Sequence record: PQ529420
DNA from: Escherichia phage Eryne
Length of the DNA stretch: 64,000 nt
Reading direction: 5' to 3' (one strand)
In this document: positions 29,875-31,142 of the stretch, piece by piece
Layout of the letters: each line of letters opens with the position of its first letter
Position numbering within the stretch: the first letter of the stretch is position 1
Program-made: the position numbers and the translations under genes
The notes under the pieces: model-generated
Seen by the model: the letters and a program-made list of their open reading frames with translations, nothing else
The model's database searches: none
What the model was told of the DNA's origin: nothing

Positions 29875-30309
29875 TTAGTTTAAAATTTCTTTGGCAATGG
29901 TAGAAGCAAGTTTTCCATCATATTGATTAGGATACTCTGCTTTAAGGTGTTTCATCATATCTGGCATTTTCTTTCCTGTCAAGGCAAATTCTTCAGCAAT
30001 CGCTCGAAGGTCATCTTCAGATAGCATTTCTGGTAAATATTTTTCCAGGGTGGTGATATCACGCATAGCTCGCTCACATTTGCTAAGGGAAGCATTAACT
30101 TTCTTAAGTGAGTCTAGCTCCTCTTTAGCGTGTGCAATACCAATCTTAACAATGTTAATCATAATATCATCTTCTGATTTATTTAGATTTGCCTTTTGAG
30201 TACGAGCAAGGTCAAACTCACCAATAATATTAGTTAACAAAGCAAAAGCACCCTTATCGGTTGTACGTGCTAAGATACGATCTGCTTTCATTTGTGTCAC
30301 AATAGACAT
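29875..30309 (-). CDS. GatB/YqeY-domain protein
   Basis: 144 aa; LEKYLPEMLSEDDLRAIA resembles B. subtilis YqeY LEVYLPEQLSEEELRTIV. Confidence 0.6.
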   Translation of the reverse strand: MSIVTQMKADRILARTTDKGAFALLTNIIGEFDLARTQKANLNKSEDDIMINIVKIGIAHAKEELDSLKKVNASLSKCERAMRDITTLEKYLPEMLSEDDLRAIAEEFALTGKKMPDMMKHLKAEYPNQYDGKLASTIAKEILN

Positions 30310-30321
30310 TCTATTCTCCTC

Positions 30322-30894
30322 TTATTTGCTAATGCTTTGAATCTTATTTACAACACGGTTTATTGCCAGTGAAGCCCTAGGCTCCGCAATACCTGTTGCA
30401 TAGATATAAGGATGACCTTTTGGAGACTCCCTCATACCGAATGAACCTAATTCTAAACCATATTCATCCTCTACGTCAACCCCAATATTAGTGGGTACTA
30501 AATATGTTTTAACTCCATAATAAGTAGAGAAGAAACAGCGCATAGAGTTAGCATACTCTTCAATTGTAGCATCAGGGTAGAACTCAATCAACTCCAATTT
30601 CAAGAAAATATTAAAATGGGTATCATCTAAATTTTCTTCTGTGCGGTAACATGGTGTTAGTGCCATATACGGATTACCTGCTGCAAATTCAAAACCATCC
30701 TTCTCCATTTGCAGGAAAGATTGTTCTGCACTAGCTACATAGTATTTACCGTTAGGATGCCCTAATGGGCGATCCTCTTTATTTTCTGGTAGTGTATACG
30801 CCAGTATATCAGCATCCACGAGATATGGAACTTCTAACATTTGTGCAAATCGACCATAGTAATCAATAGCTTGAGCTATTACTGCAACATTCAT
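30322..30894 (-). CDS. hypothetical protein (possible class-II-aaRS-like fold; unverified)
   Basis: 190 aa; TPCYRTEE motif; function not assignable by eye. Confidence 0.4.
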   Translation of the reverse strand: MNVAVIAQAIDYYGRFAQMLEVPYLVDADILAYTLPENKEDRPLGHPNGKYYVASAEQSFLQMEKDGFEFAAGNPYMALTPCYRTEENLDDTHFNIFLKLELIEFYPDATIEEYANSMRCFFSTYYGVKTYLVPTNIGVDVEDEYGLELGSFGMRESPKGHPYIYATGIAEPRASLAINRVVNKIQSISK

Positions 30895-31142
30895 GATCGA
30901 CCTCCATTGCGGAATGCACGTTTAGTAATGTTTGACATAGTGATCAAATCTTGAAGCGTCATACCAGGAAAATGCTGTTCAAGAACACCTTCAACAGCGC
31001 CTACAATATCTGATAACTCAATAAGTTGCATCAGCTTGCAATCTTGATCAATAGCATCTTGAAGTTCATAAAGCTCTTCTTGAATTTTAGCAATAGAACC
31101 ATATTCCTCTTTGCTAATCTCCTTCAAATGATACCCTGCCAC
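30891..31142 (-). CDS. MazG/HisE-like all-alpha NTP pyrophosphohydrolase domain protein (putative)
   Basis: 83 aa; acidic motifs QEELYELQDAID...ELSDIVGAVEGVLE. Confidence 0.35.
   Translation of the reverse strand: MAGYHLKEISKEEYGSIAKIQEELYELQDAIDQDCKLMQLIELSDIVGAVEGVLEQHFPGMTLQDLITMSNITKRAFRNGGRS

Follow-up and report, generated by a model that had tools for sequence, protein, structure and literature searches.

A SerRS-like class II core and a probable HisE/MazG-like protein form a conserved viral gene pair in Escherichia phage Eryne and other viruses

Results

A pair of overlapping genes in phage Eryne

Here we describe a pair of small, overlapping genes in Escherichia phage Eryne (sequence record PQ529420). 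One encodes an 83-aa protein that is likely to be HisE/MazG-like, the other a 190-aa protein that resembles the class II catalytic core of seryl-tRNA synthetase (SerRS). The DNA analysed, hereafter called the window, is a stretch of 64,000 nucleotides of this genome. It is 99.5% identical to Escherichia phage Paula and 97–99% identical to about 50 other genomes of Justusliebigvirus, the phi92/rV5-like E. coli phages of the Stephanstirmvirinae. Every gene between approximately 18 and 40 kb of the window, the pair included, is encoded on the minus strand.

A first-pass annotation made from the letters alone had grouped the two genes with a third, encoding a 144-aa YqeY-domain protein, in one operon. 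The three open reading frames (ORFs) do exist, all on the minus strand (31142..30891, 30894..30322 and 30309..29875 in reading order), and their packing is indeed of the operon type. The 83-aa gene (phrog_6408, 30891..31142, minus strand), the first of the pair, has a GTG start preceded by a GGGGGG Shine-Dalgarno sequence. It is joined to the 190-aa gene (phrog_4806, 30322..30894, minus strand) by an ATGA stop/start overlap at 30891..30894 on that strand, and the GGAGG of the second gene, 8 nt 5′ of its ATG, sits within the 3′ end of the first. A 12-nt gap then leads to the 144-aa gene (phrog_1460, 29875..30309, minus strand), which has its own Shine-Dalgarno sequence. Judging from the junction, we predict that the ATGA overlap couples translation of the 83-aa and 190-aa subunits.

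Directly 5′ of the 83-aa gene lies a gene for a UvrD-like SF1 helicase (31154..32929, minus strand; Pfam UvrD-helicase, E 3.7e-18), the stop codon of which is 11 nt 5′ of the GTG. Because these genes are on the minus strand, the three small genes are downstream of the helicase gene, and not upstream as had been stated.

The conserved unit is a pair

We scored the presence of neighbours by iterated hidden Markov model searches over all ORFs of 66 loci (64 viral contigs fetched with the 190-aa profile and two annotated relatives). A homologue of the 83-aa protein is present in 63 of the 66 loci. The corresponding counts for other neighbours are 4 for YqeY, 7 for the helicase, and 5 each for a 316-aa protein encoded farther downstream, NrdD and NrdG; the seven helicase loci all belong to the rV5-like group, the only one in which the helicase travels with the module. 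The reverse search gave an equally clear answer, with the class II gene found in 79 of 80 loci fetched via the 83-aa profile. Moreover, both genes are present in 13 of 15 further loci, from metagenome-assembled genomes (MAGs) filed under bacterial or archaeal species. Because co-occurrence is reciprocal (63/66 and 79/80) and YqeY is only local, the conserved unit is the 83-aa and 190-aa pair, not a trio. The co-conservation that had been proposed as a check on the grouping therefore holds for the pair, fusions included, and fails for YqeY, which is found in 4 of 66 loci and is absent from phage phAPEC8.

The 83-aa gene is almost always directly 5′ of the class II gene, the commonest junction being a 4-nt overlap. 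In some lineages it is directly 3′, so that both orders occur and adjacency is kept. No third gene shares this behaviour: after dereplication at 80% identity to 96 lineages, BLAST clustering of 3,868 neighbour ORFs gave no real cluster in more than 10 of the 96, and a Pfam census of the 150 nearest neighbour proteins found no family more than three times. One candidate from Acinetobacter phage Acj61, the protein Acj61p122 encoded 3′ of that phage's class II gene, was considered as a divergent MazG-like protein and ruled out.

Nature has also fused the two proteins, in at least 14 cases in total. One-chain fusions occur in locus L053, in L059 and L060 from giant-virus bins, in L151, L153 and L158 (contigs binned as Nanoarchaeota/archaeon), and in 9 of the 150 best representatives in a library of 1.84 billion proteins. 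In every fusion the class II domain is N-terminal, and the HisE/MazG-like domain begins about 10 residues past the motif 3 helix. When the class II domain is placed in a crude neighbour-joining tree, the fusions are spread over approximately eight separate clades, where the sequences closest to them are often unfused; repeated fusion or fission is therefore probable. An AlphaFold2 (AF2) model of a natural fusion has a predicted local distance difference test score (pLDDT) of 91 and a predicted TM-score (pTM) of 0.67, so that individual residues are placed with confidence and the domains relative to each other with only moderate confidence.

The module is restricted to viruses. The class II family comprises 1,592 clusters at 50% identity with E ≤ 1e-3, and 1,065 with E ≤ 1e-30; its members are nearly all viral and, among the matches listed, nearly all 175–200 aa long. 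The 83-aa family comprises at least 1,761 clusters at 90% identity. A search of 185,579 species genomes yielded just 15 loci, nearly all of them on MAG contigs. Carriers include rV5/phi92-like coliphages, Pectobacterium phage phiTE and Cronobacter and Erwinia relatives, T4-like phages of Acinetobacter and Morganella, Microcystis phage MaMV-DC, and phiCbK-like jumbo phages of Caulobacter and Brevundimonas.

Some of the individual records deserve comment. The module is carried by a metagenomic contig of 1,042,066 bp (L167; JGI 3300034072, Ga0310127_000002), the neighbouring genes of which mostly lack a Pfam match; this contig may come from a virus of very large size or from an unusual cellular genome. 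GenBank entry MG065656, ‘Campylobacter phage C3’ (H28, H91), has copies of the 190-aa and 144-aa proteins that are 99.3–99.5% identical to those of Justusliebigvirus, and its host label is probably wrong or the result of contamination. Two further records, ‘Acinetobacter phage vB_AbaM_ABPW7’ and ‘Pseudomonas phage PsgM04F’, are likewise close to coliphages, with 82% and 76% identity, respectively, over the 190-aa protein.

The 190-aa protein resembles a SerRS catalytic core

The 190-aa protein had been listed as a class II aminoacyl-tRNA synthetase (aaRS)-like candidate with a TPCYRTEE motif (residues 80–87), its fold otherwise unassigned. It is not in fact without a label, as GenBank and PHROG already call it ‘seryl-’ or ‘histidyl-tRNA synthetase’. 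These labels overstate its identity. The class II proposal itself is borne out by profile, AlphaFold and Foldseek comparisons, and the likeness is specifically to SerRS.

Searches with the single sequence against Pfam, NCBIfam and the PDB gave no significant match, and the fold was resolved only by profiles and structure prediction. A profile of 40 homologues matched nothing other than class II aaRSs in the PDB: Aquifex SerRS (2dq3) was first with E 8e-5, followed by AspRS, SerRS and PylRS. The AlphaFold model built from the homologue alignment is very confident (pLDDT 95.3, pTM 0.89), and Foldseek places it among the catalytic domains of PylRS and SerRS (E 2e-9, TM-score approximately 0.7 on the query). 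Comparison of the family with E. coli SerRS by hhalign gave a probability of 88%. The protein has the antiparallel β-sheet catalytic fold that defines the class II aaRSs.

We counted residue conservation over 40 homologous sequences, which share 30–50% identity. There are 21 invariant columns, including R84, F97, K99, E101, E148, S151, T167 and R173; E57 is also invariant, and P23 (≥90%), H93 and G168 are nearly so. All three class II motifs are present: P23 in the dimer motif 1 (invariant Pro), R84/H93/F97 in motif 2 (fRxE-loop-(H/R)xxxF) and G168/R173 in motif 3 (GxGxGxxR). Pairwise alignment with E. coli SerRS maps the signatures with identical internal spacings. VPYLV at residues 22–26 corresponds to residues 195–199 of the E. 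coli enzyme (motif 1), SAE 55–57 to TAE 237–239, TPCYRTE 80–86 to TPCFRSE 264–270 (motif 2), H93/F97/K99/E101 to R283/F287/K289/E291, E148/S151 to E355/S358, and T167...R173 to S391...R397 (motif 3). Most of the positions aligned in this way are invariant or nearly so in the phage family, and the equivalents of the serine pocket are all invariant: E57 (the glutamate of TAE), E101 (the glutamate of FxKxE) and T167 (the Thr/Ser six residues ahead of the motif 3 arginine), which align with E239, E291 and S391. Going by the roles of their counterparts in T. thermophilus SerRS structures, the aligned positions would include the ATP-binding arginines, the adenine-stacking phenylalanine and the magnesium ligands, together with a glutamate and a threonine that would recognize the hydroxyl of serine and a second glutamate for its amino group. 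Against the PDB, a profile made from the C-terminal third and aimed at motif 3 returned chance matches only. The pairwise alignments thus identify the 190-aa protein as the catalytic core of a SerRS, in which the adenylation site is apparently complete.

The core is nearly all there is. Of the 190 residues, 185 align to the catalytic core, with the N-terminus 21 residues ahead of motif 1, and within the protein there is no coiled-coil tRNA arm, no C-terminal tail and no other appended domain. The family is also strongly acidic: the median isoelectric point is 4.85, and the net charge has a median of -10. The motif-2 loop has a net charge of -4 or -5 in 28 of the 40 sequences, and is six residues shorter than that of E. 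coli SerRS, which contains three arginines. Because the arm is missing and both the protein and its motif-2 loop are acidic, we infer that the 190-aa subunit does not hold tRNA on its own. Identity with HisRS, the PHROG 4806 label, failed; it requires HisRS as the closest fold and a C-terminal anticodon-binding domain.

A few family members depart from this plan. Three class II-like proteins (P0193, P0195 and P0201) have a cysteine-rich, zinc-ribbon-like tail at the C-terminus, and in locus L025 a zinc-ribbon protein is encoded just 3′ of the module (8660-9427). In P0036 (261 aa) an unrelated N-terminus of 100 aa takes the place of the first ~32 class II residues, motif 1 included; this chimera could be a recombination product or an assembly artefact.

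The 83-aa protein is likely to be HisE/MazG-like

The 83-aa protein had been described as all-alpha and nucleoside triphosphate (NTP) pyrophosphohydrolase-like. The metal-binding signature supports that description, and the database matches fall short of it. Against the Pfam family PRA-PH, the protein from the window scores 14.7 bits (E 0.043), compared with a gathering cut-off of 21.3. PRA-PH is nevertheless by far the commonest Pfam match among diverse homologues (45 of 53; best E 2.5e-4), always below threshold. The 25 Pfam families with the largest numbers of matching homologues do not include Seryl_tRNA_N. In a profile search of the PDB the top match is the MazG-like protein 1vmg, and HisE (2a7w) ranks fifth, among unrelated helical proteins (E 0.14–0.3). 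Comparison of the family with the single E. coli HisI and MazG sequences by hhalign was not significant.

The pattern of conservation is more informative. Fourteen residues are invariant in the 53 homologues: Y4, H5, I9, G15, K19, E22, E23, E26, E42, D45, G48, F77, G80 and R82. Five of these (E22/E23/E26 and E42/D45) make up an EExxE-(15)-ExxD metal-binding signature, and six others (Y4, H5, K19, F77, G80 and R82) are peculiar to this family. All-alpha NTP pyrophosphohydrolases are recognized by E-x-x-E followed after 12–28 residues by E-x-x-D, on two helices, and the spacing of 15 residues found here is within that range. Indeed, the AF2 model of the natural fusion shows the corresponding domain as three helices, the first of which carries ExxE and the second ExxD. 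Taken together, the signature and the matches suggest that the 83-aa protein is likely to be HisE/MazG-like and probably active, which is not proven. In three proteins (P0059, P0060 and P0061) two HisE/MazG-like domains stand in tandem in one chain, the second of them with an incomplete metal motif. The tandem arrangement fits a dimeric functional unit.

YqeY is a local neighbour

The assignment of the 144-aa protein as a free-standing YqeY domain (GatB C-terminal-like) proved sound. It scores 30.4 bits against Pfam YqeY PF09424 (cut-off 27, E 4.6e-7), and among PDB entries it is closest to YqeY of B. subtilis (1ng6, E 8e-5), with 8xjg also matched (E 0.008). YqeY homologues in GatB and D. radiodurans GlnRS bind tRNA. 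However, the YqeY gene adjoins the pair only in L001–L004, the four Justusliebigvirus loci of the 66. In phAPEC8, of the sister genus Phapecoctavirus, the order is helicase, 83-aa gene, class II gene, a 462-aa orthologue of the 316-aa protein, and nrdD, with no YqeY. Among phage records, 151 have a YqeY-like gene and 272 have the class II gene, with only partial overlap; one record in the overlap is Caulobacter phage CcrBL9, in which ~44 kb separate the two genes. The YqeY gene is a later, lineage-specific insertion outside the conserved module.

Wider gene context

tRNA genes are present within the 6–8 kb flanks of the module in 21 of the 96 lineages, and within 1 kb in 13. In six loci, all jumbo-phage contigs (L025, L027, L036, L039, L043 and L066), the module lies at about position 8000 inside an array of 9–23 tRNAs, and each of the six arrays includes tRNA-Ser. 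tRNA occupancy is 8% in the first kilobase beside the module and about 5% farther out. The tRNA association is regional, not tight. ARAGORN also assigned a CUA anticodon (‘Pyl’, an amber suppressor) to a tRNA in L039 (1980-2053) and to another in L042 (967-1123).

Genes of NAD/ADP-ribose metabolism (NAMPT, NadM-Nudix, NADAR, ADP-ribosylglycohydrolase and DUF4326) are found within 5 kb of the module in 25 of the 96 lineages, DUF4326 in 9 of them, and the Eryne window itself encodes DUF4326 and a Macro protein. The RNA-repair nucleotidyltransferase RlaP occurs in 10 of the 96 lineages, and there are a few PTH2 neighbours. PADLOC gave no match; its library consists of defence models and not of anti-defence ones. 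These neighbours are the usual accessory-island content of large phages; they give a hint towards RNA/nucleotide conflict functions and do not make a case for any one pathway.

In Eryne, the YqeY gene is followed by the gene for the 316-aa protein (28907..29857, minus strand) and then, in the gap before nrdD, by a terminator-like hairpin (28837..28859, minus strand) with a 9-bp stem and a T-run. The order on the coding strand is helicase, 83 aa, 190 aa, 144 aa, 316 aa, hairpin, nrdD and nrdG. The hairpin is the first of its kind on this strand and comes only after the 316-aa gene; its position is suggestive of the end of a transcription unit that would run from the helicase to the 316-aa gene. 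An operon arrangement of these genes is plausible. The case for co-transcription is made by gene packing alone, because promoter-like and terminator-like consensus matches in the region show no excess over shuffled sequence.

PHROG 15930 and GenBank call the 316-aa protein a ‘ribonucleotide reductase’. It has no match in Pfam, NCBIfam or PADLOC, and its phAPEC8 orthologue shows clear similarity only across approximately 100 C-terminal residues. The label looks like annotation creep from the adjoining nrdD. Another protein, of 136 aa and encoded at 34258-34668 (minus strand), belongs clearly to DUF4326 (77 bits), although its relatives are annotated ‘NrdA.1-like ribonucleotide reductase’.

Farther along the minus strand of this lytic phage is a Ter-type gene set (18330-26530), encoding TelA (18330-19433), TerC (21212-22189), the Macro protein (22747-23580), a ComF-like PRTase_3 (23456-24313), a HAD hydrolase (24306-24980) and an AAA ATPase (25370-26530). 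The set is similar to the ‘nucleoside-like metabolite’ clusters around tellurite-resistance genes. The GC skew switches sign near window position 40000; the coding strand probably changes there too, at the border of two transcription modules.

Discussion

A probable two-subunit enzyme and what it may do

The conserved feature is probably a virus-specific two-subunit enzyme, which in some viruses is one fused chain. Our preferred reading of its function, which we hold tentatively, is that an arm-less core activates an amino acid without tRNA and that this step is coupled to pyrophosphohydrolysis of a nucleotide, both subunits acting on the same small molecule. The 190-aa subunit would bind Mg-ATP and L-serine, or a very similar small amino acid, and would form an enzyme-bound aminoacyl-adenylate with release of pyrophosphate (PPi). 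Because there is no coiled-coil arm, the acidity is strong and the motif-2 loop is short and acidic, the acceptor is presumably not a tRNA held by this subunit alone. The 83-aa subunit would cleave the alpha-beta pyrophosphate bond of an NTP-like molecule. Translational coupling would supply the two subunits at a ratio of approximately 1:1, probably for an A2B2 complex. Most likely, they would catalyse consecutive steps on one nucleotide-linked small molecule, with conversion of an NTP to the corresponding nucleoside monophosphate.

Several points weigh against this proposal. The HisE/MazG assignment of the partner is made from sub-threshold sequence matches and a motif, and the single-sequence hhalign comparisons with HisI and MazG are non-significant. 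A MazG-type enzyme produces PPi and does not remove it, so that there is no obvious drive for adenylation. The serine pocket was mapped by sequence alignment and from the roles of residues in T. thermophilus SerRS, and the domain arrangement of the fusion model is only moderately confident (pTM 0.67). Finally, the tRNA genes and arrays, the few PTH2 and RlaP neighbours and the local YqeY suit a tRNA-directed function better.

Such a function is the foremost alternative, and we think it unlikely, if worth serious attention. The pair would be a two-piece SerRS, or would re-charge or repair tRNA 3′ ends, with the core acylating A76 and the 83-aa protein (plus YqeY in Justusliebigvirus) providing tRNA binding or end-processing. 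In its favour, the SerRS-type active site is wholly kept. The genomic surroundings point the same way: tRNA genes in the flanks of 21 of 96 lineages, 13 of them within 1 kb, six arrays of 9–23 tRNAs, RlaP in 10 of 96 and PTH2 neighbours, and in Eryne a YqeY domain directly 3′, from a family with tRNA-binding homologues. However, tRNA occupancy beside the module is only slightly raised (8% versus approximately 5%) and may reflect accessory-gene islands, and YqeY is not co-conserved. Moreover, the protein has neither the coiled-coil arm nor another appended RNA-binding domain; it and its motif-2 loop are acidic where the E. coli SerRS loop has three arginines; and the invariant acidic metal site of the obligatory partner is of a kind usual in hydrolases and not an RNA-binding surface. 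An improbable third reading makes the class II subunit a ligand sensor and not a catalyst, much as HisZ in the HisZ-HisG ATP-phosphoribosyltransferase; it would bind serine, ATP, or an aminoacyl-adenylate-like or amino-acid-nucleotide conjugate and would gate or feed the HisE/MazG-like hydrolase, possibly destroying a host signalling or toxic nucleotide. A HisE-like partner, stoichiometric coupling and fusions that suit a regulatory or targeting subunit, and the NAD/ADP-ribose genes near the module in 25 of 96 lineages are all in its favour. Nevertheless, every residue required for catalysis, and not merely for binding, is invariant even in highly divergent members (the motif 2 and motif 3 arginines and the magnesium ligands E148 and S151), neither HisG nor another enzyme partner is conserved nearby, and there was no PADLOC match among its defence models.

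Two further readings concern the genes as a group. The first-pass annotation had suggested that all three genes work together as a unit, in tRNA repair or in sanitation of the nucleotide pool. This is in keeping with three contiguous, tightly spaced genes on the same strand, for which all three domain assignments hold, and the tRNA-related context is mild and speaks directly for neither function. We nevertheless consider it quite improbable and largely refuted: YqeY adjoins the pair only in Justusliebigvirus and close kin and is missing at the corresponding Phapecoctavirus position and from the flanks of the other 62 loci, and the phages that bear YqeY and those that bear the module overlap only partly. 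At the opposite extreme, a decayed aaRS fragment and a MazG house-cleaning enzyme might merely travel together, as both families are common among phage accessory genes. We regard this as very improbable. Reciprocal co-occurrence exceeds 95% across lineages that share approximately 30% identity, the genes occur in both orders yet are always adjacent, and fusions recur; decay is excluded because the catalytic residues are invariant in both proteins.

Three other ideas were considered and set aside. A histidine-like pathway of the HisZ/HisG/HisE type, using the ComF-like PRTase 6.5 kb away, fails as the PRTase/HAD/Macro set is not conserved with the module. DNA hypermodification was judged unlikely, as no kinase or transferase travels with the module; in addition, we know of no DNA modification common to the phage groups that share it. 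Ap4A synthesis would leave the obligatory PPi-producing partner unexplained.

Implications

We regard the pair as a new family of class II aaRS paralogues, specific to viruses and set apart by an obligatory partner that has no precedent. In the literature we found no characterization of a class II/HisE-MazG-like pair, only mentions at the level of annotation. One report accepted the ‘histidyl tRNA synthetase’ label at face value and read it as phage tRNA charging (PMC10698182). A survey of viral NAD/ADP-ribose genes includes no aaRS-like protein, and the rV5-like MazG discussed there belongs to a different cluster, with sirtuin and tRNA-ligase genes (PMC9503650).

Hundreds of phage genomes carry the class II gene as ‘histidyl-’ or ‘seryl-tRNA synthetase’. 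These labels are unsafe because the parts of SerRS and HisRS that hold tRNA are missing and the protein is almost never alone; we suggest ‘SerRS-like class II core, HisE/MazG-associated’ in their place. The family also bears on the minimum size of an aaRS-type enzyme, as a natural class II core of approximately 185 aa with three motifs and an intact pocket. It is doubtful, but conceivable, that the pair represents an unrecognized kind of viral enzyme, the smallest natural three-motif class II aaRS core (176–200 aa) with a built-in pyrophosphohydrolase. If so, it might make or destroy an aminoacyl- or adenylyl-nucleotide metabolite with which large phages manipulate host physiology or immunity. 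Alternatively, it might be a two-piece, arm-less SerRS, in which a core of near-‘urzyme’ size would serve translation in nature.

The module is self-contained, spans approximately 1,600 clusters at 50% identity, and has been kept by rV5-like, T4-like and phiCbK-like phages as well as by cyanophages and jumbo phages. Its probable role is a step of general use in taking over the host, and its recurrent placement among tRNA, RNA-repair and NAD/ADP-ribose genes is a pointer to where to look. Both proteins are small and probably soluble, and they are found in well-studied coliphages including phi92, so that the proposals above are directly testable. Among the carriers of the pair are EmilieFrey and PaulScherrer, which we take to be phages of the BASEL collection.

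Comparison with known systems

The closest known enzyme is bacterial-type SerRS (EC 6.1.1.11), and the differences are considerable. The E. coli enzyme has approximately 430 residues, compared with 190 for the phage protein, which lacks both the N-terminal coiled-coil arm and the C-terminal tail. SerRS needs that arm to bind the long variable arm of tRNA(Ser). The motif-2 loop of the phage core is six residues shorter and acidic rather than basic, and the core has an obligatory HisE/MazG-like partner, which SerRS never has.

Other class II paralogues work without tRNA, namely HisZ, AsnA, EpmA/PoxA (GenX) and the amino acid:[carrier protein] ligases (Bll0957). These are proteins of approximately 300 aa, whereas the phage family has 176–200 aa, derives from bacterial-type SerRS and is restricted to viruses. 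Besides the pyrophosphohydrolase, we found no carrier protein, HisG, EF-P-type or other conserved partner near the module in the 96 lineages and the 150-neighbour Pfam census. HisZ works with a short-form HisG and has degenerate catalytic residues; identity with it was rejected, as no third gene is conserved, HisG is missing from the 25 Pfam families seen most often in the 150 neighbours, and the catalytic residues are invariant. Identity with the amino acid:[carrier protein] ligases was likewise rejected: these are characterized by an adjacent carrier or phosphopantetheinyl transferase and by methanogen-type SerRS ancestry, and the module has neither.

The 83-aa family shares with the HisE/MazG superfamily its length of approximately 85 aa, its helical nature, an EExxE-(15)-ExxD signature on consecutive helices, PRA-PH as the commonest Pfam match, and tandem-duplicated forms; E. 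coli MazG is itself tandem-duplicated. By contrast, it remains below the Pfam threshold, has its own invariant N-terminal YH and C-terminal F-x-x-G-x-R motifs, and is tied to a class II aaRS-like protein (79 of 80 loci).

As a two-component system, the module is best compared with MazZ-PurZ of the Z-genome phages and with HisG/HisZ-HisE of histidine synthesis. PurZ is adenylosuccinate-synthetase-like, with a ligase fold unlike that of the phage class II protein, and for the module there is no evidence of base modification. The likeness is one of pairing logic, which our preferred reading follows: in both systems, an all-alpha NTP pyrophosphohydrolase is paired with an amino-acid- or nucleotide-ligating enzyme.

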